Source: Picochlorum sp. SENEW3
Lineage: Eukaryota
Reading direction: 5' to 3'
Length of the DNA: 64,000 nt
NCBI GenBank assembly: GCA_034226945.1
Contig: CP120457.1
Location: 310,001 to 374,000, forward strand
In this document: positions 23,843-64,000 of the stretch, one piece after another
Numbering within the stretch: position 1 is the stretch's first letter
How the letters are laid out: every line of letters starts with the position of its first letter
Made by a program: the position numbers and the translations under genes
The notes under the pieces: generated by a model
What the model saw: the letters and a program-made list of their open reading frames with translations, nothing else
The model's database searches: none
What the model was told of the DNA's origin: nothing

Positions 23843-24600
23843 ATGCAGTCCGCAACTATGTTCCAGAAGGTTTCTATTACCAAGCCAACTGCTGCTGTTC
23901 GGTACGTGGACATGACGATGTGATGAAACCGTCCTGTGTCGGTGGTCTCCTTCTGTTCCACGGAGACAGCCTGGGTGGTATCATGGTGACGAATTATATA
24001 TGTATTTTCCGAGGCTAGATGCCCTCGTATGATGGCCATACAAGGGTGAAGAAACGTCTTTTGGGAGATAGGGTTGGATGAGATTGAGTGGGATTGGATG
24101 GATGGAATGAGCCTATCAAGGGTGGGGTTGGATGGGAATGCATTGTCCATCATTGAATGATGGTTGTTGTATTTCTTCCTTCTTCTTCTCCTCACTGAGT
24201 TTTTTTTAATTCGATGTGCAGCCCAGCTCAGCGTAGAGGAAATGCAGTCATCGTGGCATCTGGTGCCAAGAAGGTGGATATCAAGAAGCAGGGTCTCAAC
24301 TCTGTTCAGAACGATGTGGTCAAGAAGAACTTGATGGGAGTGTCTGAGACCATGAAGAAGAGAGACTGGACTGATGCCAATGGACGCAAAGGAAAGGGAT
24401 ATGGAGTGTACAAGTTTGCAGACAAGTACGGAGCTAATGTGGATGGATACTCTCCAATCTACACCCCAGACACCTGGTCAGAGTCTGGTGAGTCATACAA
24501 GCTCGGAAAGGCTGGATTGATTGCCTGGGCTGGATTGATTGTGGTGCTCCTTGGCGTGGGATTGAACTTGATCGTCTCTACATCTGCTATTGGACAGTAA
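23843..24600 (+). CDS. psbR: Photosystem II 10 kDa protein PsbR. Exon 1 23843-23901, intron 23902-24221, exon 2 24222-24600
   Basis: GRKGKGYGVYKFADKYGANVDGYSPIYTPDTWSESG plus C-terminal TM helix. The transit-peptide exon MQSATMFQKVSITKPTAAVR splices in frame. Confidence 0.95.
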
Positions 24601-24802: not shown

Positions 24803-27800
24803 TTATCCTGTGCGCTTGAGAAGGTACTCTAGAGCGAGTGCCAGTTTCTCAGCAACATGTTGTCGTCCTTGTCTGCTCATGAGGCATTCTGTATGGCGTT
24901 CATCCACTGTCAGCGATAATGGTCCCTTTGGATCGTCAACGTATGGTGTGGACGCATCGAGGAGGGACTTTCCGACCCTGTCTTTTGGAACGATGATGGC
25001 TGTTGGGCCTTCGTATGTGTCTGTTCCTACATGTGGTTGGATGCCCATGCGTTTTAGTGAAGCTGCTCTGTCCAATGTGGCATACACGGCTGTTTCCCAT
25101 GCAGCGACGGGAACGCTCGGATCTGAAGGTTTGAATGAGGTGATAAACTTCAACTGCTGCGTTGGTGATCCAGCTCCTTGCACGAAATCAACGAATTCTC
25201 CGATACTTGATTGGAGAGATCCAATTTCTTTGAGGAGGTAGAACAGACCATACCATGTCGTATCATGGAGCGGAATATTTGGTGGACTAATGCATCCATC
25301 CAGCAATATCAATCCTGTTTGCTTTCCAGAATTGTGAAGATAGCGTGCCATTGCCTGCGCAATCACACATCCAGTGACGCTGGTTCCTGCCAAGAGATAT
25401 GGACCAGATGGCTGCATCTCAATCATAGCTGCGCAGTATGAAGCTGCCAGTTCTTCTGTATCGGTGCACTCTTCTGCATCTGGTCCCAAAGCAAGACCAT
25501 AACATGGAACTCTGAGCATGGCTGCGAGCTCTTTCTGAGCTCCACTAATGTCACCTCGCTCAGAATGCGTCATCCACAAGGGGATTCGTGCAAGTGGGGC
25601 AGACGCCATTTGTGCTGGGGTGCCCGTTTTTCCAATATGACGCAGAATATACCTTCTCTCTGGACATAATCTATTCAATGGAGAAACAACGCAGACTGTG
25701 CTGAGTGATCCAATATCCTCATCCATGCTATCTGGCTGTGGTGATACATCATGCATTCGTGGTGACATCAATGGAAGTGCGCTTACGCCTGTAGCTCTTT
25801 GCTCGGCATCTTTACGCCTCCAAATGGCCTCAAGTATGTGGCGGGTCAATGTTGATGCTGCATGGTGATCTTTTCGGTTCAAATAGTGGAATGTGACTGG
25901 TTGTACAAGGAACCTGATTGGTTCCCAGACATTATTTGGCCCATTGATGATGTGCGCTGCGTCTTCGTGGTCCATTTCTGATATCTGTGAGATGACTTCA
26001 GAAGATGAGAATACCAGGGATTGTCCAGGGAAGATATCCACTGGAGAGTAGCTATCTGACACTGTCTTGTAGTATCCCAATCTCGATAAGGTGACATCAA
26101 CCTTGACGTCCCATTCAGCTACTGAAAGATTTTCGGGCCTGAATGAAGCCAAGTAATCAAGCTGCTCATCGAATGCAGGCGTTTCTGCGAGACGTATCAC
26201 AATCTCATCCAAAGGTGGAGCCTTTGGACCCATGGTCTCCAAAATCAAGGGATACAGCGCAACTGCTGCTTGGCATGTGTCCACAGCTGCCTCCTCAGAG
26301 AGTAGTTGGGACACTTGCGTATTGTCCTTGATCGTGTATAATCCTTCAAATAATGCCAGTGTACAGACATTGTCGTTGAGGCCATCCAGGTGAAGCGCAA
26401 GCTCATGTGCAAGCAGTCCGCCAAAGCCAACACCGCCAACAACAACAGGCTTGTTCATCGGGATTGTCCTCTGGAGTGCTTTCATTGCAACTGTGGCAAG
26501 TTCGTTCAGGTCGGGAGCTTCCCAGAGAAGGTTGTCTTGAGGCAGGTGAACAGCGAATGCCGGAATGTTGACATTGCTGAATATAGTCTCAAGCCCACCC
26601 AAGGTTCCATTTGCTTCACAGCACACAATCAGGAGAGCCTCGACATCGCCTGGGCCTGTCTGCTCTTGCCACGCCTTTCCAACTCTATTAATTGCAAATA
26701 TCTGATCTTTTGAAGATCCGGTGAATGCACTGCCAACGCCTTCTTCGGTTGCATATGGCATGGCAACCTCCAGTCTTCGTCTGAGACCAGGATCATCCAC
26801 TCCCATCTTCTTCAGATAAGAATCAATGTCTCTAATCTCATTGGCTGAAACGGAGTATTGCGGTTTGTCTTCTCTACTGATTGTTTCAGACCAACCAAAC
26901 GGTCCCAGGACCGTTTTCAGGCCCGTAACAAGAATATTCATGTCTTCCAAGTCTTGTCTCAACAATGAGAAATGGTCTCCAGGCACATCAATGACCCTGA
27001 GATCCAAGCACCTTTCATACCAACAGGCGCCGTGGGGATACGGCACGTTTGGTCCCTTCCGATCATCAAAGTATGTACAGACACCTGGAACGAATGCTCT
27101 GAAGTATACAACAGGAGACAACAGGTGGTGATTCGAGAACTCATGACCTCTGAGGTCAGAAATCTGTGATCCCTGCTTTGTTACTAAAGCCACATATTCA
27201 ATTTGCTCCTTTACCTCTTCAACACTCATGTTGGAGTCTCTCATGACACGCCAAATGGGTGCAAAGAACTCATACTTTTGATCCATTGTCATGCCTTTCC
27301 ACTCATCTGATTCCTTTGGATGGGCGATGGAGGATCCCATGCCCAGAGCGTCCCTTCCAAGGGCACCCAAGATCATCTCCATGAGCTCTAAGCAATCCTC
27401 ATCAGTCGCTTCAGTTGCTTCAGGTTTCTGCTCTCTAATTTGTGATTTCAATGGAGTATCCATGATCAGTACTAGTCCGACCTCTTTTCCCCAACTTTCC
27501 AGCACCATTGCAATCTCCACAGCAACTGCTCCTCCATATGAATGTCCTCCAACCAAATAAGGCCCTTCAGGCTGAATCAAAACCATGTCCTCGGCATTCT
27601 GAAGTGCTAATGCTTTCAGGTCCAAGTCATTGTCTTTGTCAAGCACGTAAATTGGTTGTGTACTCCATTGCAGGAACATGGAGAAGGCGAAATAAGCGGA
27701 TTGTGCATTGGCAACACCTGGTGCAGCCAGGAACAGCGGCCTGGCCTGAGCTGGTGGGCGCAATGTCTTCATAAGTTTTGACACTTGGGGCTGTGGTGCT

Positions 27801-30800
27801 CGCACATCCCTTCGTCCCTTTGCGACATATGCTTCCTCCGAATCCTCATCTGTACCAGGTGACAATGCTTTTTCTTCTGAACTTGTGACCACCCCACTAA
27901 TGTATCCGACAATATCCTCAATTGACTGGTAGTCATACAGAAGCGTCACTGGAAGCTCCAATCCTAAAGATTCAGCAAGGATTCTTCTCAGCTCCATACC
28001 TCCTCTAGAGTCCAGTCCTGCTGTCATTAAAGGCTCTTCTGGATGAATGGCGTGGCCAACAACCTGCTTAACTTCATTCATCACTTGGGATTGTATGTGA
28101 ATCAAACGTTCCTCTTCTGTCATCAACAGCAGAGGATGATCTGCTGGGATTTGATCAATCTCATCCTCCTCGTTCTCTGCAGCTCGAGGTGTCTGCGCTG
28201 AGAGAGGTCCAGGTGATGTAGGAGGCAGATCATGTTCACCGACTATCAGGTTCTTCAGCGTAACAGCACTGTCAGATCCTAAAGCTCTTGCATTCGTGAC
28301 TGCCCAGGAATCTTCCTCAGAGAGATCCATTGATATGCTTTCCATACGCTCGTGAGATCCCAGATTGAATGAGATATGCTCGATTGTCCTGACCCATGTC
28401 AGTGGCGATTGGAGAGGTGCCATGTGACTCGCAGTGAGGGCGACCACAGCTTCAACAACGCATGAATCAACATGATTGTCCATTGACCTCGAATTATAGT
28501 GCAGAGAAGAGACAGAAGACGCTTGTCCCCTTTGAAGCAGTCCAGATAGGAGTGCTGATGGCTTGTGCAGTTTTGGAGCACCAGCCGATTGTCCAGATGG
28601 TACTGACATCCTTGCCGCCATCACTTTTTGTAAGGAGTGGGTCACCTCCAAATGACCGGTCAAAGGCTTGATGAGAATTGACACTGTACTCTCATCTGCA
28701 GTCATTCTCTTACTGGGCCGAGGTAATGGTAGAGGAGCTGGGAACGTCGCTGCTGCCACTCCACTAGCAATCAATGAAGAATCTGAGACAAGCATTTCCA
28801 CCCCTGCCATGGTGCATGTCAACAGTGTAGAAGATAACAGATGTGATCTTCCGTAAATCTGGTTGCATAGATACTCGACATTCTTCGAGGAATTGATTTG
28901 ACTTTCGAAAGTCACTGATCCAGTATTATTCTTTGATCGTCGCCTTACCCAGGCAACATCAAGCAGTTTTGCCACCCTTGGAACGACCCACATTCTCTGG
29001 CACTCCCAATTAACCACGTCGCAATTAGGAGAGATCACGGTTATCCCTCCTATTCCTTTAATAACTGCATGTGCGTTTGTTCCCTGTGCGCCAAATGAAC
29101 TGACTCCCAAGATAGCCTCACCACTTGAGACATCTGATGGAGTACCTATCTTGCTACTCCTTGCTATCAAGACTTTACTGTCTCTGATTGCGCCATATAC
29201 GTGTGGATTCAAGTGACGCAAATGAAGGGCTGGAGCCATGCAATTTCGCGTTGCAACTTGCATTGCTTCACACAGACCGACTGCACCAGCAGCTGACTCC
29301 TGGTGCCCTGTGTATCCTTTGACTGTTGCAAGCATGAATGGCAAATACCTATGACGAGATAACGCTACCGCAGAAATAGCCCCTATTTCGATTGGATCTC
29401 CAAGACTAGTACCGTTAGAATGTAATTGAATTCCGTTGACATCCTCTGGTCTCATAGAGCTGGCATACCAAGCCTCTCTCAACAATTGTTGCTGTGCTGG
29501 ACCATTAGGAGCTGTCAAAGAGCTAGCTCTTCCATTCGTATTGACTGAGCTCCCGCTAATTACCGCGATAACATCTTCTATATCTTTTTGAGGATAGTTG
29601 GGACCGAGAATCAGCGTTCTTACTGCTTCTCCTCTGGCGTACCCATCAGCAGAGGCATCCAGAGTCTTGGAGCGCCCTTCTGGAGAGATCATCTGTGCCC
29701 TTGTTAACATGAGGGTAGATTCAGGGACTAAGCAGAGCAAGACTCCAGCAGAAATAGCAGATTCCATTCGAGATTCCCTAAATGCTGAACAAGCCATATG
29801 TGTGGCGACCAGAGATGCAGAACATGCTGTATCAACGCTCACCGCAGGGCCCTTGGCAGCAAACACATATGCCAGCCGCCCGCTTGAGACGCTTGGGGAG
29901 GCAGATGTGAAGCTAAATGCATTGATTGGCTGCCCGTTTCGATGACTCAAAGATTCATAGTCAGTCGCCGCAATTCCAACAAAGGCACCTGCCTGCTTTC
30001 CAAATACAATCTCAATGCCACCTGCTGAAGTCAGAGCAGATAATGTTTGCATCAATAAAAGTCTCTGCTGTGGGTCCATGCCAACAGCTTCTGATCTCAT
30101 AAGGCCAAATAATTCTGCATCGAATAACTCGACATCTGGAACGAACACACCAAATTGAGATGGAATATTTCCCTCCCCATCAACGAGGAGAGGGGAATTG
30201 ACATCCCATCTCTCAATAGGTACTCTGATCGATGCATCTCCTTGCACCCAATCCTGCAGAATCTCTGTTTGCCCAGACACTCCGAATACATTGATATCGG
30301 ATCCTGAGAAGTTTGCATTGGCTACCAAAGCATCTTCTGCATCGCCAATCGGCCCACCGTCGCCACTCAATGCCTGGCTCAAAAATTCACTCATTGCGTC
30401 AATTGTGGGGTAGTCAAACACAAGTGTCGAGGGCAATTCAATCGAAAGCTCATCTTGAAGCTTTTGCTGCAATTCGGTTGCTCCTAAAGAATCAATTCCA
30501 GCTTCCATTAGAGGCTCGTCAGGCTTTACAGACTCGCCAACAATGGATTCAATTGCCTCTGTGACAATCAAACGAACAGTGTCCGGGTCAATTCCTGCCT
30601 GGACTGGCTTAGAAGCCTCCAAAACTCTATAATCTTGATCGAACACGGATGATGAGTAGTCCTGGGCACTCGGGCTGAGTATGAGAGGCGTGTATGGACT
30701 TCTTGGTGTCAATGCAGTTGAGCCTGGATCGGCCTTTGGTCTTTCAGTCAGCAGCCTTCTTGTCTCGACCTCACTGAGTGAAACTTTGCAAACGCCGCCT

Positions 30801-33800
30801 GCATTCACGGACTGCTCCACGTATCGTTCATCTTTGCTGAGAACACTTGAGGTCCATGCATCACTCAAACTGGTTTCAAGAGGAGAGGTCTCAATCATGC
30901 CAATTTTGGCAGCAACGCGGATAGTAGAATGGCTGAAATTATGCGCTGTGCACACAGTTCCAGACGATTCTGAAATTGCTGGGTGCATTCTGAATCCATT
31001 AGAATCGACTGCCGTTGTTGACACACATGCCAGATTGGATTTGATCTTTGTTCCCTTTTCCATCACCGCACCAATGGTTGAGGACGTGCCTGGCTGATTC
31101 TGCATAGGCTTCTCTTCAATGCTCGCTGCAGATGCATAGAAATGCACTCTGTTTGAATGCGACAAAATCTCCATGGAACTTGTCGAGACATTGATCATCA
31201 AAATTAAGTTCACGCTCTGTAAAGCCTTCTCAATAAATATTGGTGCAGAGAACAAACCATCTTGCAGATACACACTTGATTTCTGGTTGAGAAGTGAAGA
31301 TACTCCAGACGCTGAGCATTCAATCATTGATGAGGCCGATACAATGCAGCGCCCTTGGATCACGTGATCAAACATGAAACTTCCTCTTGACGAGACGAGA
31401 GTACAATTGAACATTGCTTGCTTTCCTCGCCTAGTTTTAAAGACAGATGCTGTGTGAAGAAGTGTGCTAGGGAGTGGTGCCACCCAGATCCTACCATTCT
31501 TCCAAGGAAGGTCCCTCTTGGCCGCAATAGGGCCTGTATAGTTTGCCTTTCTAACAATGGCATGAGCATTGGTTCCTTGGAATGCAAAAGAGCTGATTCC
31601 AGTGTACAATCTGGAACCTTCAGCCATCCCACTGGCACACCTTGGAGCAAGCCAAAATTGCTGCTTTGTCTTCATGGCCTGCATTTCCATCACCGTTTCG
31701 ATGTGACTATTTAGTTTGGATAAATGCGAGATTCCTTGGACAAATACTGCAGAAGCCGCTATACTGGCGTGCACTAATCCAGTTGCTCCAGCTGCTGCCT
31801 CTGTATGACCAATCCAGGCCTTTGCAGTGCTGGCAGAGACAAAGCTACGCCTAGATGAATGATCCACCAGCACAGCATTGGCTGCACCAAGTTCAATTGG
31901 ATCGCCAAGAGGTGTACCAGTTCCATGCATTTGAAGGTTTGAGATCTCTCCAGGGAGAGTCTCGCTGAATCTTAGGCATGCCCTCATCACCTCAGACTGA
32001 CTTGGCCCATTGGGTGCTGTTAGAGAGGCAGAGCTTCCATCCTGGTTGACTGCTGTACCTACCAAGACAGCTACTGCTTCTAACGAAGCATTTGAATCAC
32101 TGACCGCATAGTACAAGACTGCTGCAGATTCACCTCTCACGTATCCGTCGGCAGCACTATCTAGAGTCTTACACCTTCCGTCAGCTGACAGCATTCCTGC
32201 CTTTTGGAACATTGCTGTGGAATCTGGATTCAGTAAGAGTCCGATACCAGCCGTCAAAGCCGCGGATGAGCTTCCTGACCAGATCGCGTTCGCTGCAACA
32301 TGAGATCCGACCAAGGATGAGGAACAAGCTGTATCTACACTCATTGCCTGCCCTTTGAACCCAAACGTGTATGAGATTCTACCACTAGCAACACTCAATG
32401 CACCACCTGTCGCACTGTAGGCACTCACTCCGCTGGTATGCCTTGCGACAACGTAATTATTGTACTCAGCGCTCGCAATTCCGACGGATACAGCCACATT
32501 TGACTGAGCACTGTAGCCTCTAGATTGAGAATCTGAGATGACTTCTTTCGATAGCTGCAAAATAATCCTTTGTTGGGCATCAATCAGGAGAGCTTCTGTG
32601 GAGGAGAAACCAAATGCCTCAATATCAAACTCATCGATATTCGACAAGTATCCACCGAACCGTGCAGGTGAGTAGTCCTTGGAAAGATACTCAACATCCC
32701 ATCTCTCCACCGGAATTGTGGTAATGGCATCGATTGTATTTATGCATGATATTGACATCGGCGTCTTGAATGCCGCAGACATCAAATGCAGTGGTGTATT
32801 GGATGATTTAAGATTGAGTTCCAGTGTTGGCTCAATATCTTTAACTTCCTCTATGTCAGGGATTGAATCTGGAAGCTGAGTCTCAAGGAATGAAACCAAC
32901 GCAGATGGTGTAGGATAGTCAAATACGAGAGTTCCTGGTAGCTGTAGACCCATACGAGACTCCAATGCATTCTTCAATTCAACTGCACCAAGAGAATCTA
33001 GACCAGCATTCATCAGAGATTCATCCATTCCAACAGTTGCTCCTGTGATGGATTGAATGGCATCTAGAACTTCAGTCTGGATTGCTTCCGTGGATTTAAT
33101 CACACTTGTTTGAATACCGGCAGCTTTGCCACTTGAAGATTCTAGCTTCTTTTGAACAAAATTCTTAAAGAACACTGGTGGGCTAGATCCCAGTCGCTTC
33201 ATCATCTTCTCCCAAATGAAGAGATTTGCTGAAGTAACCGGTTCGTTTGCTCTACAAGACACCACACTCTCCAAGACTCGCAGGCCTAAGTTCGGATCAA
33301 GCAGTCCCATACCAGTTCTTTCAACCCTGATTTGCGTAGAGGAATCATTTGCAGCCATACCAGAACCAGCCCAAGCGCCCCACTGGATGCTCTGAGAAGT
33401 CAAGCCACTTGCCTGGAGATGGGCTGACATTGCGTCAATGACTGCGTTTGCAGCACTGTAGTTTGTCTGCCCAGGAGAGCCAAGCAAGGCAGCCACAGAT
33501 GAAAACATAATTTGGAACGAAGTTGGGTGCTCCGTGGAGAACCTATTGATCAGGTTGACGCTCTCAACCTTCGCTCCGAACACCTGGGCAACTGACTTAA
33601 TTGTCTGGGAACCAATGGTGCCATCCCTGAGTACTCCTCCAGCATGAACAATACCCAGAAGTTTACTGCAGTATATCTTCGAGGTATCTGCCCTAGTGGA
33701 TGTGTCACAGGATGTTGAGGTGCACATAGATCCAAAGATACTGTCAGATACACAAGAAAAGTCAATTGGCGAGCCGGTGGTAGGTCGCCCAGTTCTGCCA

Positions 33801-36800
33801 AGCAAGACAATATTCAGCATATTTTGACTGGCAGCCCAATTTGCCACTTGGAACCCAAGTGTACCCATTCCACCAGTGATGACAATAGCATTTTCTGTTC
33901 CTGTATCCTCACGTTGGGACATATGAGAAGCACTGACAACGATCTTTCCAACATGCCTTGCCTGAGACATTTGTCTCAGCGCTGACGACACATTGCTCAT
34001 GCTATGTGATACGAATGGAAGAGGTTTCAGATAACCTTCAGCAGCCCCTGCAGAAACAGACATCAAAGCAGAATGCAGTGCATCCTCCGGCATAAAGTCA
34101 ACTGCCAGAAGAGAATATTGAATATCTGGCCTTTCCTGCGATGATCTGCTGGAGCTCCAAATATCTCGCTTGCTGATTTCAACAAATCTTCCACCCATAT
34201 CTATAGCTGCCAGGGACGCAGCCACCATGCCACTTGAAGTCAAGCTGTTAAGCACAACATTAACTGGTCCACAGAGCATCACATCAGATGCAAATATTGT
34301 ATCTCGAGATCCTAGTGCATCTGAAACTCCTAGGCTACGTACCAAGAAACGCTTGTTTGAGCTTCCGGCAGTAGCAACTGTCCTTGCACCTTTGGATGTG
34401 GCCATTTGAATAGCAGCAAGTCCTACACCCCCTGCAGCTGCATGCATCAATAGAGTCTCTCCTTTTTGAATTGAAGCGATCTTATTCAGGGCTGTATCCA
34501 CAGTTATGAAGACAGTTGGCATTGTAGCAGCTTCTTGGAAAGTGATTCCTTCTGGGATGGGGACCAATGTCTTTTCAGATGCTAAAACATGGCTTCCTAA
34601 GCTTCCAGCTGCCAAACCAAATACCCGTTGCCCAATCGTAAGAATGGATCCATCAGGAGAAACTCTTGTAACAACTCCTGAACAGTCACCGCCAGGATCT
34701 CCAGGATCCCCAGGGTACATGCCCAGAACGTTGAGGACGTCTCTAAAGTTGATTCCAACAGATTGTACCTGTATCTCAACCTTACCAACACCGACTGCAT
34801 CAATTTCCACAGGTTCTGGAACTAGATTACCAAATGCACCTCTTGGTCGAGGCATGAGGTGGTACGCAGGAGGCTTTTGGCGCTGAGTGCTCTCCAACAG
34901 TACAGCTAGATCTGCAGCATTGCCGCTGACAAGGCTTCCATATCCATCAGAGACAGAAGGTTCAGATAGAATGGAAATCTCTGTACCATGTTGCTTTTTC
35001 ATGTTGATATCCGTAAGATAGCCAGTATTTGTCAAGCCTGGCATCTCAGCTGCAAGGGATCGAATCATACCCCAATCTCCCTGAGCTTGTTCTCCAAACT
35101 TGTTATTGCCATGTGTAGAATTGACAGAAACTGCCAACTCCTCTCTGGTGGCAATACATTTCAGAGCTGAAAGCATGTTACCAGCATGCTGCGTTGCATG
35201 ATCCTGATATTTTACCGAGATGAGATTGCCTTGTATCTCAACCCCATGGTGAACATGGTCAACTTGTCTCTGTACAGTGTACGTGATATTTTCATTCACA
35301 ACTCTTCTGGAAACCTGTCGGCCAGAGGATGTCATAGGCTTTGCAAGGAGACCTTGAAGATGCATTATATCCGCACCATCGCTTGTCTGCAGCCGATGAT
35401 CGCGGAGCGTGCCTCCCAGATGCTCACTTGATCTTGCCTTTGACTGGGCCATGATCTGCTCCCTGCTGTGGACTGAATCCACGACAACGAAAGCATCTAT
35501 GGCAGCAGGCACAAATGTCTCATCTTTAGAAACTCCATCCTCTTCGATCACCGCGCCAAGTTGGAATGTATTGTCCAGCACGCTTGGGTGAATTTTGTAT
35601 CCTGTTGTGATATTCGTAGCATCTCCTACCACAATCTGTGAACAGGCATCTGTTCTATTTCCATGGATATTGCGCATTCTCCTAAATGCAGGTCCATACT
35701 GAAGACCTGCTGAGTTCATTTCACTGTATATGTGTCCAGAATCTCTTGGTAGACTGCACTGTGCCCTGACTACTTCCATTGATTTCCTTGAACCAGTTTC
35801 AAGATTCCTGCGGCCATTTCTGTCAATCTGTACTGCTTGATTAAAATGTGCACTCAAGTGACTGATCTCGTTGGACTTACTACGAGATATAATATTAATC
35901 TTGAAGTCATCTAGGCTCAATTGAAGAACGAGGGACACGCCTCCTGGACTGTCAGATGCTATCACTAGTGGTGCACTGATGGATGCATTGGCAACACAAG
36001 CAACAGGCGAAGGTAGCTTCGCCAAAGATGAATTAGACGCCACCGCAAGCTCGAGATATGCTGCTCCTGGCAAAATGGCTGAACCATTAATTTGGTGGTC
36101 CCTCATGTCAGCCAAACAAGGAGAATCAAGCTGACAAGAGAGTTCCACTGAACGACCCATTTTAACACTCTGGAGCAGGAATGGGTGGTAACTCGTTAAA
36201 ACTTCAACATGGGATCTCAAAGTAGAGTGCCATTCAAACTGGTGATCTGTTTCAAATCCATCTAGGCTAGAAATGATGGCATGAGCGTTCACTCCACTCA
36301 TGCCGAATGAACTTGTACCAGAGAATGTTGCATCACTTGGAGAGCTCTGAATCGGCAACCGATGTGCCTTATTCCACCCAGTAAACGAATTCTTGACATA
36401 TTCGTTCATGTTTCTGTAGCGCAGGGGATGTGCATACTGATATGCCAGTTGGACTCTGCAAAGCATGAGGCCTGCCAGTCCGGCTGTTCCTTCCAGGTGT
36501 CCTGTCAAAGTCTTAGATGCCCCAACCGTGAAGGATTCGTTGGATTTGCTGGAGGAAATCGCTTTCCTGAGGGCTCCAGTCTCTATTGGATCACCCAATG
36601 GGGTACCTGTGCCATGCGATGCAACATAGCCCAAATTGTGAACATGTGCCTGTTGCATGGATTGAATGATCAGGTTTTGCTGAGATGGTCCGTGAGGCGC
36701 AGTCAAACCAGCGCTTCGGCCATCTTGGTTCACAGAAGATCCTGCGACTCTAGCCAAAGCATCAGATTTGCACTGATCCAAACGCTGAAGCACAAGAGAA

Positions 36801-39800
36801 ACAAAACCTTCTCCTCTACCATAACCGTCTGCTTCAGCTCCAAATGCTTTACATCTTCCATCTGGTGACAAGGCATGGACTTGGGTCATTGCAGAGCTCG
36901 CTGCTCTGGGGAGAAGCATGGCATTTACTCCTGATGGTGTCGCTTGCAAACAGTCTTCTAAAGCAATGCCTCTTGAAGCTAGATGATAAGCCACGAGGGA
37001 CGAAGAGCAGGCTGTGTTCGTCGGGACACATGGTCCGACCAGACCAAATGTGTACGAGATTCTTCCTGACATAAATGCCAGGCCATTTCCAGTTACCATG
37101 TGTGCTCCTGTGGGAATATTCAACGAAGACAGCAAATCGCCGTACTCAAGCCATATGCAACCAACATAAACGCCAGTTGAACTGCCAGAGAGATTTCGAG
37201 AAGATAAATTTGCAGACTGGAAGGCATTTTGAGTTTCTTCAAGAAGAATACGCTGCTGCGGATCCATTAGCGAAGCTTCACCCACTGGGAGGCCAAACAT
37301 TTGCTCATCAAATTTGAAGAGCGATTCCACATAGGTTCCTATGCGTGTGGACACTCTTCCTGCTCCACCACTTGGATGATACCAAATTTCACTATCCCAT
37401 CTGGATAGCGGGCTTGGCTGATGAAGCTCTGTGCATCCATCAAATGCCTCATGCAGTTCTTTTTCGGAAGTTATTCTCCCAGCAAATCGCATCGACATAC
37501 CACTGATGACAATGTCACCGTGTACTGGTGAGATGAATTCTGGTTCTGCAGCCAGAATCTCCATTGTACTCTCTTGTCCACCTAATGCATCCATAATATA
37601 TTCCGCTATGGCTTCCTGGGTGGGATAGTCAAATGTCAATGTTGATGGCAGCTCCAAGCCAAATTCTTTGCCTAATGCATTCCTGAGCTCTACTGCACCA
37701 AGAGAGTCTAAACCAGCCTCCATCAGAGAGGCAGATGCAGGAACAGAAGTACCAATGACAGCAGCAGTCAAATCAGAAATCTTGCTCATGATCGTATCTT
37801 TATTGATCGAGGGATTCGCTGACTTTCTCGGTGCAGTGTCCACATGCGCAACTTCTGAGCTTTCCTTCAAGGTGGCTTCAAGGTAGTCCACAATGGCCTC
37901 TTGCGTCGGATAATCAAAGGTTAATGTGGCCGGCAACTCTAAGCCAAACTCTTTGCCCAATGAATTCCTGAGCTCCACTGCGCCGAGAGAGTCTAATCCA
38001 GCTTCCATCAGTGAGGCAGATGCAGGGACAGAGGTGCCGATGACTGCAGTGGTGACAGTGGCAACCTTGCTCATAATCGCATCCTTGCTCACCAAGTTTG
38101 ATGGTTGTGGCACCACCGAGGAAGCCCCCCGAGAGGCGCGTAAATTTCGTGCTTCTTGTGGCGTAAAGTTCTCAAACAAGGTTGTTCGAGATCTGAGGCG
38201 CTTGGTGAAGATCGACCAATCGAATGGATTGGCACCTATTATTGGCTTGCTGAATGTAGAGACCACACCTTCCAATACTCTCAACCCTTGGTCTGGCTGG
38301 ACCATTCCCATTCCCATTCTCTTGACTCGCAATTCAGTCTCTTTCGAAGCCATTCCACCGCTTGACCAAGCTCCCCATTGGATACTTACTGCTCTACAGC
38401 CCAATGATTGAAGATTGCTTGCTAATGTGTCCAGGGCAGCATTTGCTCCACTGTAGTTGAGCTGCCCAGGGGCACCCAGGAGAGATGCCACCGAAGAAAA
38501 CATGACTTGATTGCGCAAAGGAAGCTGTGGTGCAACACCTAGTAATTCCTGTGCTGGAATCAATTTGGATCCATATACTGTTCTGAAGCCTCCAAGGGAC
38601 TGCCGACTGATGGTTGCATCTGCAAGTACACCTGCTGCATGAAGCAGCATTGAATGTGGTACTTTGTCTTCTAATGAGAATTCAGTCTCTAATACATTGC
38701 GAAGATCTTCTGTGAGACCCATATCACTCTTGACGATATGAATCTCCACGGTATGATCTTCAGGCATATTGGTAGCACTGAATGCTCCTGTTCTACCAAT
38801 CAGTGTCACTGTTTCAGCTCCTCTTCGAACTGCCCAGCTAGTCGCTATCTGGCCAAGGCTGCCAGTGCCTCCTGTGATTAAAGTATTTCGAATTTGAGTA
38901 TTCAAGTCGACATTTTGATTTTCGACCACGATCTTGCCTACATGTCTCGCCTGAGACATCTGCCGCAGAGCTGCACCAACATGTGTTAGATGGTGGCATG
39001 CCAAAGGCAATGGCTTCAGATCATTCCTTGCGACACCTTCGGCGACCCTGAGCAATGACTTATGCAGGGCATCTTCAGACATGAAGTCAACTGCCACAAG
39101 CGAATAGGAAATATCTGGTCTTTCCTGCAGAATTCTCTGCGCGGGCCAGATATCGCGTTTGCTGATTTCAACCACTCGAGCCCCTAAGTTAGACAATGAC
39201 AAGGTTGCTGCAACAAAGCCTGCTGATGTGAGAGTGTTCAGGGCAATGTCAACAGAGCCAACGCTCTCCATAAATGTTTCAACGAATGATAAATCCCTTG
39301 ATGTAGCCGTATGTCCTACCCCAAGGGTTCGCAATAGATTGCGCTTGCTGGGATTTCCAGCAGTAGCCACTATTGTGGCACCAGCTGCCTTCACTACTTG
39401 CAGTGCAGCCAAACCAACTCCTCCAGCTGCTGCATGGATCAGAACTTTATCATTCGATGCAATCGATGCTGCCCTATGCAAAACTGCATCTACTGTAACA
39501 AATACAGTTGGCATAGTCGCTGCAGATGCAAAGGAAACATTATCTGGTTTGGGGACCAGTGTCTTACTTGAGGCCAACACATGGCTACCCAAGCTGCCAG
39601 CAGCCAGGCCAAACACGTGCTGACCAACTTTCAGATTAGATCCAGCAGGGGATTCTATGATGGTTCCAGCGCAGTCACCTCCTGGAGGGCCAGGATCTCC
39701 TGGATACATCCCGAGAACATTGAGGACATCTCTGAAATTAATGCCGACAGCATGAACTTGGAGAAGAACCTCCCCACTTCTGGGATTCAAGGATTCGAGT

Positions 39801-42800
39801 GCAAATGGCTTCAAATTCTTCAAGCTTCCTCTAGGATCCGGAATAAGTTGGTATGGTCCTTGGATACGATTTAACGTAGCTGTGGCCATCGATGGGGTAA
39901 AATCAACCTTTGAGTAGGAGGAAACTCCATAGCCATCAAATGGCACCTGCTCTGAGCTTTCCTGTGACACCGCTACCAGTGCACATGCGCGATGAGATGT
40001 CTCAATCGGGTCGGTTCTGTGACAAGACACATTTGATACCACAGATTCTTGTGCAAATGTCCTCAGCATTCCAAAGAGCTGTCCCCCTTCGTTGGAGGCT
40101 GCTGGCTTTGGCACAACATGCCCATCATGCACCACAGTGTCAAGTGAAACTCCATTAATCAAATGGGCGTGCTGCAAGATATTTGCCACAGAACTCGAAT
40201 TTTCGACAGTATCATGAGTGTCGACAAATTTGAAAGTCGAGTTGAGGCTCTTAGCCTTGTTAGTCAAAGTAGATGCAGTGGATGCACACCAATCAATTGA
40301 GTATGCCATGTCCTCCTCCACTGTCTTTCTTGTCCTGGAAGCAGCCGAGCTAATCTTGCGAGATTCCAAACAGTTTAGACTACAAATCTCGTTGCCCTCT
40401 GAATCAACCAAAAGCAAATCCCTTGAGATGGTGGTGGTAGACTCTTCCATGCCAGCAGATTTCTTTGCGAGGCCAATAACAGTGATCTCAGTGATTCTGT
40501 CTTTTACGCTCATGGCCTTCAAGGAGGCAGGAATCATTGTTTCCTTAGCTCTGGTTGTCTGTATCAATCCTCCAAGTTGTAAAGTGCAGTCAAGCACAGC
40601 AGGATTCAAGATACATTCTGTCTTATTGTGGCTTTGGTCTTGACGCAACTTTGCTGCAGCTGATTCCTTTCCAGCCTTGACCGATCTCATTAGTCTGAAG
40701 TGTTCACCGTACTCTAAACCGGCACTTGAAAACTTGGAGTAGATGTAATTGGTCGCAATTGGTTCGCATGTTTTCACCATCATCAATTCAGGTGAGGTGA
40801 TTGCTTTGTTCTCGGCGTCTTGGACAAGAGCCCGAGAAACCTGGCCTGCAATATGCTTCGAGGGTGATTGGATACTCATCGTCCCATCTGATAATTCAAT
40901 GACTATCTTGGCATACAGCCTTCTGGAGTGTTCCATGTTCATTAGGAGAGGTGAGGCAAAAACAATGCTGTTGAAGACACTTCCAGGAAGTGCTCCAAGT
41001 ACAGAAACAGCCTCTGCCATAATTTCCATGTAACCGGCTCCAGGGAACACGGAATTGCCCGAAACTACGTGAGACCTGATGTGAGCATGCAACGGTCGGG
41101 ATAAATTTACCTCAAATGACACTTTGCCACCAGTGCATTCTGTCTTTGTCAGGAAAGGCATAGCAACAGGCAATACTGACACGTGTACCATTTCCCAAGG
41201 AACATACAGGTCGCTAACCTCCATCGTTTGTACTCCACCCCGAACAATAGCATGCGCATTTGTACCTTGGAATGCAAATGAACTAATTCCTGCATAGCAT
41301 CCCGTGAGTGATGATTTCGGGTTTCCTGCTGCGATTCTTGGCAGAGCAAACTTCAAGGAGTTTTGTGATAGTGATGCTCTGGCATAGGAATTAGCTTCTG
41401 TCAGGTGCATTATCGGTTGCAGTGCCATGAAATTTGAGGCCGTGTATGCATGAAGGACTCCCAGTAATCCTGCTGATGGTTCTGTATGACCAAATGATGT
41501 CTTTCCTGCCATTAATGACAGGTTTTCATTGTTTCCACTATGGACTGCTGATATAGCTCCGACCTCAATAGGGTCTCCGAGAGGAGTGCCAGTACCGTGC
41601 ATCTGTATAAATGATATCTCTTTGGCGAGTACATTACCAGCCATCAATGCATCTTTCATCACAGTCTGTTGAGCTGGACCATTTGGTGCAGTCAATGCAC
41701 TGGACTTGCCGTCTTGGTTGACTCCAGTGCCGATAATATGGCATTCACATCCCTCTCTCTCTTCCGAGATCTGCTCAACAATGAGAGTTATGCCAGCTTC
41801 TCCTCTTACGTAGCCATTTGCGCCATCATCAAGCGTCTTACACCTGCCATCTGCTGCCAACATACCGGCTCTGTTGAACATTGCCGATGTCTCTGGAGTA
41901 AGTATCAGCTTAATGCCAGAAACAATGCTAGAGTGGTATGGCGAATTCTGCATGGACGAGCATGCCATGTGCATTCCTACCATAGAGGAAGAGCAGGCAG
42001 TGTCAATGCTGACTGCAGGCCCATTAAGATTGTACAAGAAGGCTAATCGACCAGATGCAACACTAAGTGCACTTCCAGTGGCACTATATGTACTGATACT
42101 ACTGTAGACTTTTGCAATATCTGCGAAATCTGGTGTAGAAATACCTACATAGGTCCCTACATTAGAGCCTTTCCAAGCATTTTTTGATCTCAACTGCGAT
42201 ATCGCTTCTTCTACCATTTGAAGAATGAGCCTTTGTTGAGGATCCGTCAACGCAGCTTCTGAAATTGAAGTACCAAAGACCTGGTGATCGAACATGAAGA
42301 CATTCTGCAAGAAAGCTCCAAACCTCACGGACAAATCCTCCGTCAAATGGATCTCCGAGTCCCATCTTGATGTTGGTATCATTGATATATTGTCCTGGTA
42401 GTCTATGATGCCATCTGTGCCTGGCAAACGGCATGCGGAGCTGGTTACCCCAAGTGAAACCTTGGTGAAATTGTTCAGTTGCTGGCTAAATTCTTCCTGT
42501 ATCTCCAGCGTCTCCTCGGGGCGAAGCACACTATCGATATACCCAGAGATTGATGATATTGTAGGATAATCGAACACGAGCGTCGACGGAAGTTCCATTC
42601 CCAAGCGAGACTCCAAGCCATTTCTCAATTCAACTGCCCCCAAAGAATCAAGACCAGCTGCCATGAGCGGTTCTTCAGGACCAACTTCACCACCGATTAT
42701 AGACCATGCAACCTCCTCAACCTCTGCCTGAATTTTCTGCGCATCAATGGCTATTGTCGGACGCGAAATGGAGGCATTAGTCACCCCCAACATGCTATCA

Positions 42801-45800
42801 GTGGTCCACTTCTGCTGCTTGTATAAGTCAAAGAAGAATGGAACCTCATCTTTGGTATTTTCTAGGAATTTTGGCCAATCAATTGGCGATATAGCAATGT
42901 TTGCTTTGGCATGTTCTGGCGTGCTCCACGCAATGCTTTTGAGAACAGCTGATAAACTGGACATCCCAGATTTTGCTGAGAGAGCACCAAGTCCCATGGC
43001 TTCCATTTTCGACGAGGTTTCCGACGCCATTCCTCCAGATTTCCAGGCTCCAAATTGTGCACTCACTGTCATAATTCCCATCAACTGGTCAGCGTCAGCC
43101 AGACTATCCAGCCAAGAATTAGCTGCACTGTAGTTCATCTGCCCTATGGATCCCAGTAGAGATGCCATAGATGAGAAGAAGAAACGCAATTGGAATGGTT
43201 CATAGGCCATGAAAGAATCAATGTTATTTGCTCCTTGAGTTTTAGGAGCAAAAACCTGACGAATGCTTGTCGCAGACTGATTGTATATCGTAGCATCACT
43301 CAGAACTCCACCGGCATGGAAAAGGCTTGAAAAGTGCTGTGATGCCTCACCTCTGAAAGCTTGAACGTCGGCGAAGATGGATGTATCGCTCTTCATGATT
43401 GTCAACAAGTTCCTATGAAGTTTTGCGAATTCCGGTGAAGTCCGGTAGGCCCCAGTTCTGGCTGAGATTGTGACATACCCGCTCTTTTGGTCCATGAGCC
43501 ATTTAGTTACAAGAGATCCCAGGGCTCCTGTGCCACCAGTAACGAGGGATTGGCCGAGCTCGATGCTTGACTGCAGTAACAATGGTCTCACGACGATCTT
43601 CCCGATGTGCCGAGCTTGAGACATCTGTCGAAGAGCATCAATGATTGATGCCATATTATGGCTTATTAGTGGGAGTGGGAACAGCTTGCTCCGTGCTACT
43701 CCATCGGAAACCCTCATCAATGCATTGTGTATTGCTTGAGCGGACATGAAATCAACTGCTAACAGATTATAATCGATGTCCGGCCTTTCTTGCAACATCC
43801 TCTCAGTACACCAGATATCTCTTTTGCTGATCTCCACAAATCCACCTCCACGAGCAAGAGTTGAGAGCGTAGCAGCAACAAACCCGGGAGATGTAAGTGT
43901 ATTGATGACTGATGTAGCACCTTGGGAGCATACAATCATGTCTTCTGCGAAGGATGGAGATCGGGAGTTGACAGTGCAATTAGCTCCAATTCCCCGAAGC
44001 ATTTCTCGCTTTGAGACATTTCCCGCTGTGACGACAGGCACTGCGCCCGCAGCTGCAATTACTTGCATTGCAGCTAGGCCAACACCCCCCGCTGCTCCGT
44101 GAATCAACACCTTATCCTTGGACTTAATGTTCAATGTGCGATTCAGTGCAACATCAACAGTGACAAAGACTGTGGGCATGGTGGATGCTTGTTCAAATGT
44201 GATGTTATCTGGCATTGGTACCAGCGTTTGGCTGGAAGCATATACGTGACTGGCAAGGCATCCTCCGGCCAGACCGAATACTGCATCTCCGGGGCTGGCA
44301 ATGATTTCACCATTATGCTTCAGGTGCCCCTCTAACAGCACTCCTGCACAGTCACCACCTGGATCCCCAGGGTCGCCAGGATACATCCCGAGCACATTCA
44401 AGACATCTCTGAAATTAATTCCAACTGATTTGACCTCAACAAGCACTTGGTCATCCGACAATGGCAAGTCCAAGGTGAGAGGTTGGGGTTTCAGATCAGA
44501 AAGAGCACCTCTGGGCAGAGGCAGCAGCTGATATGTTGAATGCATCTCTGTGGCTTCTGAATCAACCATTTGAGGTCTGTACAGAATACTACCTTCAATA
44601 CTCTCTCCAAATTGATCGACGTTTCCCACCGAATCTTTTCTCATACCAACGGCTTGGTTATGCTGCAAAGTGCTCCGATACCTGATTCCCCAAGAAATCT
44701 GCGGAGCTTCCTGGCCCAAAGTCCTGAAGAATCCCCCCAAGGCTCTTGTAGAAAGATAGTTACTATATAGAGAAGCAGGTCCGGCTGGTGATGCATGAGA
44801 AATGCCAGAGGACAAAGTTTCAAAGAGTAGTCCTTTCCCTGACGTCTGCAGCATGGATGATCTGATGCCTTCCAAAGTCGCTGTTGCTAGGTCTGAGGGA
44901 TTTCGGGACGCCAAGAGTTTCCAGCAGAAGTCCTCATGCATATCTTCACTCCGTTTGGCAGGTTCATAACCGACAAGACCACATGCATAGAGAGTGCGCT
45001 CTAACTTCATAGGCTGCACCAGTTTCTGATGAGATCCCATGCTCTTTGCCTCCAAGCTTTTCACTGAGCAGATTGATTCAAATACTTTCTGCTTCATTGC
45101 ATAGTCACTTTTCATACCATCTTCTGAAGGAAGGGGTACAGTCACTCCCCAAGCAGATTCGTTAGATGTGGTCAGGTCTTTTGCTCCTGATCCAGTAGCG
45201 ATGCAACCAACAGATGCAGGAACGTAAACATCTGAGCCATCTACAAATACCTGCCCAAGCTGAAGGAATGAATCAAATACCGCCGGATCGAGATACATTG
45301 AAGATCTCTCTGTCTTGCTATTCAGGCGACACACAGCAGGTTTGCTGAAAATATCTGTCATTGGCTGTACCAAGGTCCAATACATAGGGTGATTGAGATT
45401 CTCCTGAGTACTTCGAACAAAGCGGCCTAGGCAACCATGCATATGCGTTTGACTTGTGCCATGTTGGTACGATTGTATTGTTGTTGTCCCGCTGCACAGT
45501 TCAACTGCAGTCTCCAGGATTTGAATTTCCTCCGTGTGACTCAGCATCAAGGGTGCAGGGATGGACACTTCTTGGATACTCATCTCTGACATGTTGGCAA
45601 TGCACATAAGTCTTCCGGCAGCAAGTGATGCCTCGAAATATCCTGCTCCAGGGAAGATATTCTTCTCCAGTACTGTATGATCATATAAGTATGCCATTGG
45701 TGGAGAATCTAATCGAGCTTGGAGCCGCGTGGTATCCTTGCTTCCTATTGTTACTGAGTCCAGGAACAGATGAATGAGCGGAACCACATAGTGCAAAGAA

Positions 45801-48800
45801 CGAGAATATGGTATCTGTTCATCTAATACACAATGTGCAGAGTCGCTTCCCGTTAGAACAGCGTGAGCATTTGTTCCTTGGAAGGCAAAAGCACTAACTC
45901 CCATGTTCTGGGAGGCAACAGCTTGGGTTTGTGCAGACTTCTCCCTGGGAAGCAGAACACAATCTTTCTTCGAGAGATTTGACTCGACATACGGATTCAG
46001 ATTTCGCAGGTGAGTCAACTGAATGAGTTTGGAGAATGACAAGCTGGCTGTCGCGAGGAAGAGCCCAGCCATCCCTGCCGCTGGTTCACCATGACCAACC
46101 CATGCTTTGCTTGCCATGAAGGTGAATGGATCACTAGTGTGTTTTCCATAAGCAGCAATTGCTGCCCCAATTTCAATAGGGTCTCCAAGGGATGTCCCTG
46201 TACCGTGCATAGACAAGCCTTGGATATCTGAAGGCACCAAGCCAGCCTGTTGGGTTGCAGCTAGGATCACAGAAGTTTGTGATGGCCCATTTGGTGCTGT
46301 CAATGAGCTTGATCTGCCATCCTGATTCACCGCACTCCCACATATCGTGACATTCAGGGATGTTTTGTCTGGATCAATGCTGTCGTTTGCTTCAAGAGTT
46401 AAGCAAGCACACATCTCTCCCCTCACATACCCATCTGCACTAGCATCCAATGCTTTACACCTTCCAGATGGAGTGAGCATACTGGCCGCCCAAACATATG
46501 ATGTCGAGGTGACAGTGCATTGCACATGGGCTCCTGATGCATATGACAGGGCACTTCTGCCACTAGCAATGTCTCTTGCTGCAATATGGGTGGCAACAAG
46601 AGAAGCTGAGCAAGCAGTGTCAATGCTCAAACTGGGACCTTGGAAGCCAAATGTATACGAAATACGTCCACAGGCCACAGAAAGAGCATTTGAAGTTGCA
46701 TGAAATGCGCCTTTCTCGGCATATGCATGTACGAGGGATCCATAGTCTGAGCTGGCCAAGCCAATGTAGACACCTCTATGCGAGCCTGCCTCAGAAGAAT
46801 GATACGCTATCAAGGAGCGACCAATAAGCTCTAAAAGCAAACGCTGCTGGGGATCAATCAGCGAAGCCTCTGATTGAGAGATCGAGAATGCAGTGGTATC
46901 GAAAAAGCCAATATCTTCCAGGAACGCCCCAAACCTTGCACTTGTAGAACCGTGTTGCTCAATATTCCACCTGTCAAATGGTACTGTGCCGACGACATCT
47001 ACTGATTCATCGAAAAGAAGACCACTATCTGGTGAATTTTCGTTGTAATGAACGATTCCAACACGAGAGTCATACGCTGATGCCTTGACGACCAACTTGT
47101 CTTTCTCTGCTGTGATCACCTCAGGCTCAAACAATGTTTGGATGAACTGAGACATGGATTGTACGGTGGGATAATCGAATACAATAGTGGATGGAAGTTG
47201 TACCTCGAATGCTGTTTCGAGAGCATTACGAAGTTCAACAGCACCCAAGGAGTCCAATCCAGATGCCATGAGTGGCTCCGATAATCCTACAGAAGATCCT
47301 ATGATTCTCTCAACGGATTTCGCGACAACATCGGTAATTTCGGTTGCCTTTCTTTCTGTAAGAGCTGGCCTCATAGTATGCTCCACTTCTTCTACATTCA
47401 CTTCAGCTACAGCAAAGTCCTCGATGAAAGAATGCAGACCATGTGCATCCCCCTTGCCAAACTTATTCCAGTCAAATGGTATGGCACCAACCACAGGTTG
47501 CGACAGATCAAAAATCTTCTCAAACATTCTCAGGCTATTTTCAATCGACAAGACGCCGATACCCATGCGTTCAAGGCGAATACTCGTTGATTTGTCACGT
47601 GTAGCCATTCCTGCTGAGGCCCATGCCCCCCACTGAACACTTTTTGAAGAATATCCCTGATTTTCTAATGAAGCTGCATAGTAATCCAGGGCTGCATTAG
47701 CAGCAGAATAGCTGATTTGTCCTGGAGATCCCATCATTGAGGCGATTGATGAGTACATGACATATGATGACAATCTGCTATTTCTGGTTGCATCAAATAT
47801 TTTGTGGACAGCGACAGATTTGGGGGCAGCTACCAATCTAAAATCTCGAAGAGACTGGTTTGTGATTGTAGAATCTCTCAAAATTCCTCCTGCAATATGT
47901 AGGCAGCCTTCTATGTCTTCAAGCAACACCAAGTCACTGTTGTGCGATGCGTCACACTTGCTTGAAGATAAGGCACCGTCAAATGTTGATAGGCCACGCA
48001 TTGAACCAGGTATACTTCCGGATCGACTTGAAAGGTGAATGGTATTGGCTTGATCAGATAAAAGCCAGCCTACCATTGTTCCGGCAAGAGCCCCAGATCC
48101 GCCTGTAATATGGTGCACCTTGCCCATCGTACTTCTAGACAACGGTTCTGCCTCTTCTTTCTTGCAACGGCATATTTGAGGATTCTTGACAACAGACCCA
48201 TATACAGCTCCACCATATATTCCATATTCTGGATTTGTTCGGTCCATTATCTGCCACCTTGTCTTTTGCAAAGTACTGAATCTCATAGCAATGTGATTCC
48301 CTGGATGCTCCTGAGCATAGGACTTGAGCATTCCATGCAATTGAAGAGGACTTGGATTGTCATGACTTTGGCAGATTGATGTTGCATGATCTGGAAGGAA
48401 GCATCCTGATGCACTGAAGTCCTGATCAAGTTGATCCATTTGCTGCATTGCTGCCAGTGCAGATTCCGGGCTCTGACCCTTAACACACCAGCCAAACTCT
48501 TGGCTTATCTGCTCAGGCTCTGTTGCCCTCCATTCGATGTGATAAATATGTTCATCTTTACTCCTTCCAGAGAATACAGAGGGTATTTGGCTTCTCGACG
48601 TGATCACGCCATCCACTGCCAGCAGATTGTCTGATTCTTGTTTCAAGGAGGTGTCATCAAACGATAAGAAAGAAGGCTCTGTGCGATGTGATTGTCTGCC
48701 TAATGCCATTATATCAAATGAAACAGCGATTCCGGCGATTGATACACAAGATAAGGCTGCATCCAAAGATACAGACGGGTCTCCACCAACATAATGACAG

Positions 48801-63800: not shown

Positions 63801-64000
63801 CATGGCAGTGGTACTTGGTGTGAGTAACATGTTCACACCACCACTCAATGCGTTTGTACACTGCCCAAGATTGATACTGTTCGCAGATGTATGCAGAGCG
63901 ACAAGTGAAGAAGAGCAAGCAGTTTCTACTGGCACTGCAGGACCTTGGAATCCAAATGTGAAGGACACTCTCCCAGCTGCAACACTTATTGATAGTGTTC
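24803..64000 (-). CDS. Giant AT-less modular type I polyketide synthase, 5'-truncated by the window, at least about 13,040 aa. Visible order: KS-DH-KR-ACP-ACP-ACP0 / KS-DH-ER-KR-ACP-ACP / KS-DH-ER-KR-ACP / KS-DH0-KR-ACP / KS-DH-ER-KR-ACP / KS-DH-ER-KR-ACP-ACP / KS-DH-ER-KR-ACP / KS-DH*-ACP / KS*-DH0-ACP / TE-TE0-TE*
   Basis: Nine xTACSxS KS motifs (~63915, 59720, 54640, 50085, 46610, 41995, 37010, 32325, 29820), seven TGGxGxxG/YSxAN KRs, five ERs with (G/A)AAGGVGLA, and twelve G(L/M/I)DS ACPs. No AT GHSxG/HAFH/YASH motif seen. The frame stays open to base 63998. Confidence 0.95.
55221..55754 (-). repeat. Tandem near-identical ACP-coding repeat, about 195 bp (55221-55415 and 55560-55754)
   Basis: Offset 339. 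Both copies encode [59 protein letters not shown]. Confidence 0.93.
56366..56435 (-). other. 70-nt phase-0 spliceosomal intron joining the 2525-aa and 10508-aa PKS ORFs inside a KR domain
   Basis: Minus strand reads ...CCA GTA ATG|GTATGT...TCGCAG|GGA TTA ATT CAT TCT GGA GGC GTT CTG TCT GAC. Splicing restores the KR motif SKPVM-GLIHSGGVLSDAMATNQ. Confidence 0.93.

Follow-up and report, generated by a model that had tools for sequence, protein, structure and literature searches.

The 64,000-nucleotide stretch of Picochlorum sp. SENEW3 DNA analyzed here (the window; contig CP120457.1, positions 310,001 to 374,000) holds a long segment of a modular type I polyketide synthase (PKS) gene on the minus strand, and the subject of this report is the non-reducing ending of that synthase, at 27890-32795. 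An open reading frame (ORF) of 10,508 codons at 24803..56329 contains this ending as residues 7845-9480, and a second minus-strand frame of more than 2,535 codons lies upstream and continues past the window edge at 64000. Because a 70-nt intron between them, read from the sequence, fits both frames, and because the two parts of a ketoreductase (KR) meet there, the N-terminal part closing the upstream ORF and the C-terminal part opening the downstream one according to Pfam, the two long ORFs are taken as one gene. Contigs from four runs over 52000-60000 were short and of low depth; none spanned the intron, and no joints were found. The gene exceeds 39 kb and is otherwise uninterrupted, and this intron would make an ORF-based annotation split it in two. 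No plus-strand ORF of at least 150 aa overlaps 27890-32795. The ending consists of two non-reducing modules, each made up of a ketosynthase (KS), a dead dehydratase (DH)-like region and an acyl carrier protein (ACP), followed by three thioesterase (TE)-like domains. The features of the gene are, in the direction of translation:

32885..63998, minus strand: upstream part of the PKS gene, with seven more modules, KR in all of them and enoylreductase (ER) in five; the 5' end is not reached within the window
56366..56435, minus strand: intron of 70 nt, GTATGT...CAG (GT..AG), phase 0, in frame with both ORFs
31757..32731, minus strand: KS of the penultimate module (KS8), residues 7867-8191, PF00109/PF02801, E values 4.6e-52 and 3.3e-26
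30560..31549, minus strand: DH-like region of the penultimate module (pseudo-DH8), with a PKS_DH_N match at residues 8298-8380 of 20.7 bits, below the 27-bit cut-off
30380..30559, minus strand: ACP of the penultimate module, residues 8591-8650, PF00550, motif GIDSLG
29219..30247, minus strand: terminal KS (KS9), residues 8695-9037, Pfam E values 1.1e-49 and 1.1e-25
28085..29029, minus strand: DH-like region of the last module (pseudo-DH9), no Pfam match, predicted fold
27899..28084, minus strand: ACP of the last module, residues 9416-9477, PF00550, motif GLDSRG
26930..27739, minus strand: TE1, PF00975, with GHSYG, Asp and GDHF
25850..26662, minus strand: pseudo-TE2, PF00975, 35 bits, GVGFG with Gly in place of the nucleophile Ser
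24830..25582, minus strand: TE3, PF00975, 58 bits, GTSVT; the stop codon follows at 24803-24805

The long frame was scanned against Pfam in 35 overlapping 600-residue scan windows and in larger pieces. Residues 7867-9477 match, in order, KS, a weak PKS_DH_N, ACP, KS, about 380 residues with no match, and ACP; three PF00975 thioesterase matches lie C-terminal of the last ACP. Both ACPs of the last two modules carry the serine of the DS motif. No KR, adh_short/short-chain dehydrogenase/reductase or ADH_zinc (ER) domain was detected at E <= 0.001 in the nine scan windows covering residues 7801-10508, whereas the modules upstream have KR in seven of seven and ER in five of seven. The sequence-only reading that preceded this analysis had described modules 8 and 9 as consisting of KS, a DH-like region and ACP only, and this description is borne out. 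The numbers 8 and 9 hold for the KSs within the window; since the gene continues past 64000, the true numbers may be higher. An integrated acyltransferase (AT) is also missing: PF00698 was not matched anywhere in the approximately 13,000 residues that hold the nine KSs.

The catalytic residues of the two KSs were judged from an alignment of all nine KSs of the gene and from an alignment with five relatives. KS8 has canonical motifs (DTACSS, HGTGT and K...GHTEAAAG). KS9 has DTACSA and K...GHQESAAG but carries HSNGT instead of HGTGT (residues 8970-8974; 29408-29422). The Cys, both His and the Lys are retained in KS8 and KS9, as well as in the five aligned relatives wherever the KS is covered; thus, neither domain has lost the HGTGT His or the active-site Cys, the losses that mark a non-elongating KS0. 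For comparison, the non-elongating KS0 domains described in other chlorophyte PKSs, some of which are terminal, have lost the His and have a shifted Cys, according to the relevant part of Shelest 2015, in which HANGT is also given for the terminal KSs CrePKS1-KS11 and VcaPKS1-KS11.

The altered motif of the terminal KS was traced through 36 proteins. H(S/A)NGT is present in all 22 relatives in which ACP9-like and TE1-like parts come after the KS, as well as in five truncated ones; HGTGT was seen in two proteins without a TE, whose KSs are only 39-41% identical to KS9. Among 1,023 KS motifs in 269 PKS proteins, 993 are HGTGT and five are H(S/A)NGT, and all five of the latter belong to this terminal KS. 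A quick maximum-likelihood tree of 35 KS domains places the 15 KSs with H(S/A)NGT in one clade, with a Shimodaira-Hasegawa-like approximate likelihood ratio test (SH-aLRT) value of 99. Judging from these counts, the Thr-to-Asn change is not peculiar to the Picochlorum copy, and the placement of the H(S/A)NGT terminal KSs in one clade across several chlorophyte lineages is a modest addition of this analysis.

The DH-like regions lack the residues of an active dehydratase in both modules. Compared with the real DHs of the same gene, pseudo-DH8 keeps the His of HxxxGxxxxP but has lost the Pro of that motif and the Asp of DxxxQ, and pseudo-DH9 has lost both the catalytic His (N here) and the Asp; neither therefore combines the HxxxGxxxxP His with the DxxxQ/H Asp. 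The His column reads H, H, N, T, F for pseudo-DH8 in the Picochlorum copy and four relatives, and N, Y, Y, L, Y, A for pseudo-DH9 in the Picochlorum copy and its relatives, with the Asp absent in both cases. These regions are also the least conserved of the block: their identity to five relatives is 16-31%, whereas the KSs reach 45-71%, the ACPs 44-77% and TE1 57-84%.

How far the two regions can be called DH-like differs between the modules. For module 8 the label of the sequence-only reading has profile support, from the weak Pfam match and from hhalign against the gene's own DHs (probability 89%, E 2.1e-6, 99 columns, covering the N-terminal half only); the structure model of pseudo-DH8 is unusable, with a mean predicted local distance difference test (pLDDT) score of 31.8, and the alignment of very long relatives behind it was probably poor. 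For module 9 the region is invisible to sequence profiles (hhalign probability 4%, E 0.01), and the label rests on the predicted fold. The AlphaFold model of pseudo-DH9 has a mean pLDDT of 57, with core blocks at 65-87, and the top Foldseek matches of this low-confidence model are PKS dehydratases (GphF DH1 at E 1.2e-8, CurJ and AlnB), with target-normalized template modeling (TM) scores of 0.55-0.58. The predicted double-hotdog fold of pseudo-DH9 is a second modest addition. A product-template role for these domains was considered, given product-template structures at Foldseek ranks 20 and 26, and was rejected on the missing catalytic His. Both regions are read as decayed DHs that have been retained as scaffolds. 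A further decayed DH-like stretch, with the His replaced and no Pfam DH match, precedes the KR of a KS-KR-ACP module at residues 2300-2740 (approximately 48110-49430, minus strand); dead DHs are therefore not restricted to the last two modules.

The tail beyond the last ACP was aligned across 11 sequences, namely, the Picochlorum copy plus ten relatives; two of the relatives fall into the same 90% cluster as another sequence of the alignment. The Ser-Asp-His triad of TE1 (GHSYG, Asp and GDHF) is intact in all 11. In TE2, the nucleophile position is Gly in every tail, so that no active TE set is present. TE3 has Ser in 10 of the 11 and retains the Asp and His columns in all of them; the Picochlorum copy reads GTSVT, and the Picocystis-like group has a canonical GHSFG. 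Among solved structures in the PDB, TE1 and TE3 have only remote relatives (E about 1e-6 to 1e-3), which are type I TEs from fatty acid synthase (FAS), nonribosomal peptide synthetase (NRPS), PksA and Pks13. By this alignment the TE1-pseudoTE2-TE3 tail is conserved, again a modest addition, and TE3 may be catalytically active as a second hydrolase or as an acyltransferase. One TE each is entered for CrePKS1 and CvaPKS1 in the tables of Shelest 2015, where the Picochlorum copy resolves into three TE-like domains, so those enzymes may have a three-part tail that was under-annotated.

The domain order points to the family. In Table S2 of Shelest 2015, CrePKS1 and CvaPKS1 end in ...KS-DH-ER-KR-ACP-KS-ACP-KS-ACP-TE, and CrePKS1, which has 11 KSs, is given a KS-KR-ACP module four modules before the first KS-ACP. 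The Picochlorum order (KS-KR-ACP, three KS-DH-ER-KR-ACP modules, KS-ACP, KS-ACP and TE) matches that table. The gene encodes a multimodular type I PKS without an integrated AT, and its terminal KS has HGTGT changed at positions 2-3 with the Cys and His kept, as in PKS1-type enzymes. On the strength of the domain order and the terminal KS motif, we regard this gene with high confidence as the counterpart, in a Picochlorum-type alga, of the conserved AT-less PKS1 megasynthase of chlorophytes and as an orthologue of CrePKS1, CvaPKS1 and VcaPKS1, with which it shares the integrated DH-ER-KR sets, the module order at the end and the HANGT or HSNGT terminal KS. Several differences stand beside this likeness. 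CrePKS1 (Cre10.g449750 of Chlamydomonas reinhardtii) is reported as a predicted 83-kb gene, whereas one 70-nt intron is seen in the Picochlorum copy, and CrePKS1 and CvaPKS1 have one tabulated TE where three TE-like domains are resolved here. The N-terminal AMP-dependent ligase and ACP of the PKS1-type loading region would lie beyond position 64000 in Picochlorum. CrePKS1 is also described as zygote induced, whereas a Picochlorum-type alga is not known to have a described sexual cycle.

Relatives were sought among proteins of up to 5000 residues, a range outside which full-length giants such as CrePKS1 fall. The question whether chlorophyte relatives share this ending, raised together with the initial description, has a positive answer: the same terminal block is present in Pedinophyceae sp. 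YPF-701 and Picocystis salinarum. Two EukProt entries labeled 'Pavlova lutheri', a haptophyte (P0282 and P0284), carry the chlorophyte terminal block as well. In the KS tree, no more than about 0.1 substitutions per site separate P0282 from the Picocystis salinarum sequences (P0281 and P0324), and because of this proximity the 'Pavlova lutheri' label may reflect contamination.

Nine KSs, seven reducing modules and a non-reducing ending allow the product to be sketched by colinearity. After the reducing modules, each of the last two modules would extend the chain by a single malonyl unit supplied through a trans-acting AT, with no beta-processing. The keto groups at C3 and C5 would then come from the last two modules and the methylene groups at C7, C9 and C11 from the three before them. 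The fifth module from the end, KS-(dead DH)-KR-ACP, would supply a hydroxyl at C13, since its KR is accompanied by no DH other than a dead one, and a 13-hydroxy-3,5-dioxoacyl thioester would then sit on the last ACP. TE1, the sole canonical thioesterase, would release this chain, most likely through attack of the C5 enol on the thioester, and the lactonization would yield a 4-hydroxy-6-(8'-hydroxyalkyl)-2-pyrone; the open dioxo acid is a close alternative. With the 5' end of the gene outside the window, the chain length and the starter are not assignable. Thioesters of 3,5-dioxo acids lactonize easily. The 3,5-dioxoacyl reading follows from the retention of Cys, His, His and Lys in both KSs, the lack of KR and ER, the loss of the DH residues and the intact TE1 triad, and an end that would be able to lactonize to a 4-hydroxy-2-pyrone is accordingly a reasonable prediction by colinearity. 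We infer, beyond the domain content itself, that both KSs elongate, that no reduction takes place in trans, how the chain is released and what part the product may have in a resistant wall; taken as a whole, the path to a dioxo or pyrone product is in our judgment evenly balanced between holding and failing.

The triketide pyrone proposed in the sequence-only reading is partly supported, its chemistry being consistent with the sequence of the ending, but the accompanying remark that the idea was not known to have been described does not stand. The ending is listed in Table S2 of Shelest 2015, the pyrone prediction appears in O'Neill 2020 and the wall polymer in Sasso et al. 2018. The pertinent passage of O'Neill 2020 describes a trans-AT PKS of 11 modules that chlorophytes have conserved. 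Its two final modules, without reducing domains, would give a triketide-like molecule that could spontaneously cyclize to a hydroxy pyrone, and this product is proposed to form a structural component of the wall of the zygote; in that account '?' marks domains of unknown function, and the product had not been isolated. Sasso et al. 2018 assign the product to a 'cell wall lipid polymer', and Heimerl 2018 (Plant J 95:268), as cited in later papers, implicates CrePKS1 in zygospore wall formation and desiccation tolerance. The pyrone and wall hypothesis is therefore already in print for the Chlamydomonas orthologue, and what is new here is the host and the anatomical detail. That O'Neill 2020 arrived at the same pyrone prediction independently lends it support.

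Several points weigh against a pyrone. In the terminal KS, the conserved Thr-to-Asn change beside the catalytic His could modify decarboxylative condensation or prevent it altogether. The domain scan was confined to the window, and a free-standing reductase elsewhere in the genome is possible. The possible triad of TE3 and the presence of Pks13 among the nearest solved TEs would be compatible with release by transfer. According to O'Neill 2020, no product of any PKS1 family member has been isolated, and the newer literature searched reports none.

The first of the alternatives that follow from these points is that TE1, TE3 or both transfer the 3,5-dioxoacyl chain to a hydroxyl, whether on a sugar, on a wall component or in the middle of the chain of another monomer, and thereby feed an ester-linked aliphatic polymer. 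The conservation of the three-part tail in 11 of 11 sequences, including the TE3 Ser in 10 and its Asp and His columns in all, is consistent with transfer. The TE of Pks13, one of the solved relatives of both TE1 and TE3, acts as an acyltransferase that moves the chain to an acceptor. The destination of the product in a wall lipid polymer, as put forward by Sasso et al. 2018 in the statement quoted above, points the same way. However, the PDB matches are remote and include the hydrolytic TEs of FAS and NRPS equally, TE3 of the Picochlorum copy has GTSVT rather than GxSxG, and a 3,5-dioxo thioester lactonizes readily; we consider transfer to be rather unlikely.

Alternatively, a free-standing KR could reduce one or both keto groups on the last two ACPs (ACP8 and ACP9), which would give a 3,5-dihydroxy or 3-hydroxy long-chain acid and no pyrone, with plant tetraketide alpha-pyrone reductases or trans-acting KRs as precedent. 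Such an enzyme would fit a synthase that already needs an AT in trans, and in plant sporopollenin chemistry a separate reductase acts after PKSA/B. Against this, all other reductions in the Picochlorum enzyme would be carried out by integrated KRs, which are present in all seven upstream modules, and no candidate gene was found among the 16 flanking ORFs scanned; reduction in trans is accordingly judged improbable. The least credible alternative, that the terminal H(S/A)NGT KS is non-condensing and only passes the chain on or gates its release, leaving one unreduced unit and a beta-keto acid that would become a methyl ketone by loss of CO2, draws on the alteration of HGTGT in every relative, on the restriction of the five H(S/A)NGT motifs to the terminal KS and on the terminal non-elongating KSs of other chlorophyte PKSs (Shelest 2015, in the part cited), but KS0 domains lose the His and shift the Cys, whereas Cys, both His and Lys are kept here and in five relatives, and the last module includes an ACP of its own that carries the serine; this outcome is judged very improbable.

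A 3,5-dioxoacyl or pyrone product invites comparison with several known systems. The type III enzymes PKSA/PKSB (LAP6/LAP5) of land plants are alike in the predicted outcome, a long hydroxyalkyl chain joined to a triketide-derived 4-hydroxy-2-pyrone that enters a resistant wall polymer, but they are small homodimeric KSs acting on acyl-CoA, whereas the Picochlorum enzyme is a modular type I PKS (PF00109/PF02801/PF00550) and is not chalcone synthase-like; the likeness lies in the predicted product only. Modules of bacterial trans-AT PKSs with a KS0, a DH-like isomerase or a pyran synthase share the AT-less layout of KS, DH fold and ACP, and the Foldseek matches of pseudo-DH9 include the pyran synthase 6b2v and the enoyl-isomerase 4u3v. 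They differ in that the His lost in KS0 is kept here and that the catalytic His of the isomerases and pyran synthases is missing here. The Picochlorum PKS also has integrated ERs, which are unusual for bacterial trans-AT systems. Venemycin synthase, a small cis-AT bacterial system with an aromatic starter, off-loads a triketide 4-hydroxy-2-pyrone from two KR-less modules and a TE, and it is alike in logic only, that is, in two unreduced extensions followed by a TE.

The off-loading block KS(HGTGT)-pseudoDH-ACP-KS(H[S/A]NGT)-pseudoDH-ACP-TE1-pseudoTE2-TE3 occurs in Picochlorum-type, pedinophyte and Picocystis relatives, and also in Chlamydomonas. We offer, as a speculation that is more likely wrong than right by a wide measure, that this block makes a hydroxyalkyl 3,5-dioxo or pyrone monomer that the second TE grafts, and that the monomer would be a building block of a trilaminar algaenan-type outer wall in vegetative coccoid cells such as Picochlorum, not only in zygospores. 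A 1992 paper reportedly concerned, judging by its title, non-hydrolysable wall polymers of 'Nanochlorum eucaryotum', and 'Nanochlorum' is an older name of a Picochlorum species. A trilaminar wall of about 70 nm is described for the related species P. costavermella. These two observations make a wall polymer of this kind a hypothesis of interest for vegetative cells. No polyketide link to algaenan was found in one cell-wall paper or in searches of the PKS literature. If the proposal were true, it would provide a long-sought algaenan-type wall monomer, made in vegetative coccoid cells. Compared with the 83-kb Chlamydomonas gene, the compact and nearly intron-free copy could also be much easier to work with, since its Picochlorum-type host grows fast.

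Outside the ending, tandem ACP doublets are present in two modules, at residues 197-372 and 6084-6245 (approximately 55214-55741 and 37595-38080, minus strand); such doublets have been reported for other chlorophyte PKS1-type enzymes. The genes around the PKS fit the assignment of the DNA to an alga, as the sequence-only reading had correctly supposed. The 16 flanking ORFs that were scanned include PsbR, a TOC159-family GTPase that is 100% identical to an NCBI protein of Picochlorum sp. SENEW3 and has its next named relatives in Auxenochlorella and Prototheca at 45-50%, a plant-type acyl-ACP thioesterase, Rpc25 and EMC3, and because of the GT..AG intron and the PsbR and TOC159 neighbors the PKS gene is nuclear and green algal. 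The PsbR ORF (24214-24600, plus strand) is convergent with the PKS and lies about 200 bp from its stop codon, as befits a compact genome. The acyl-ACP thioesterase (FatA/FatB-like, PF01643 and PF20791) at 9561-10622 (plus strand) lies about 14 kb past the 3' end of the PKS; it may be tied to the PKS or may simply be the thioesterase of plastid FAS. Finally, two adjacent ORFs of 327 and 329 aa, at 14296-15279 and 16682-17671 (both plus strand), each have a weak legume lectin-like Pfam match and may represent a tandem pair of secreted or endoplasmic reticulum lectin-like proteins.

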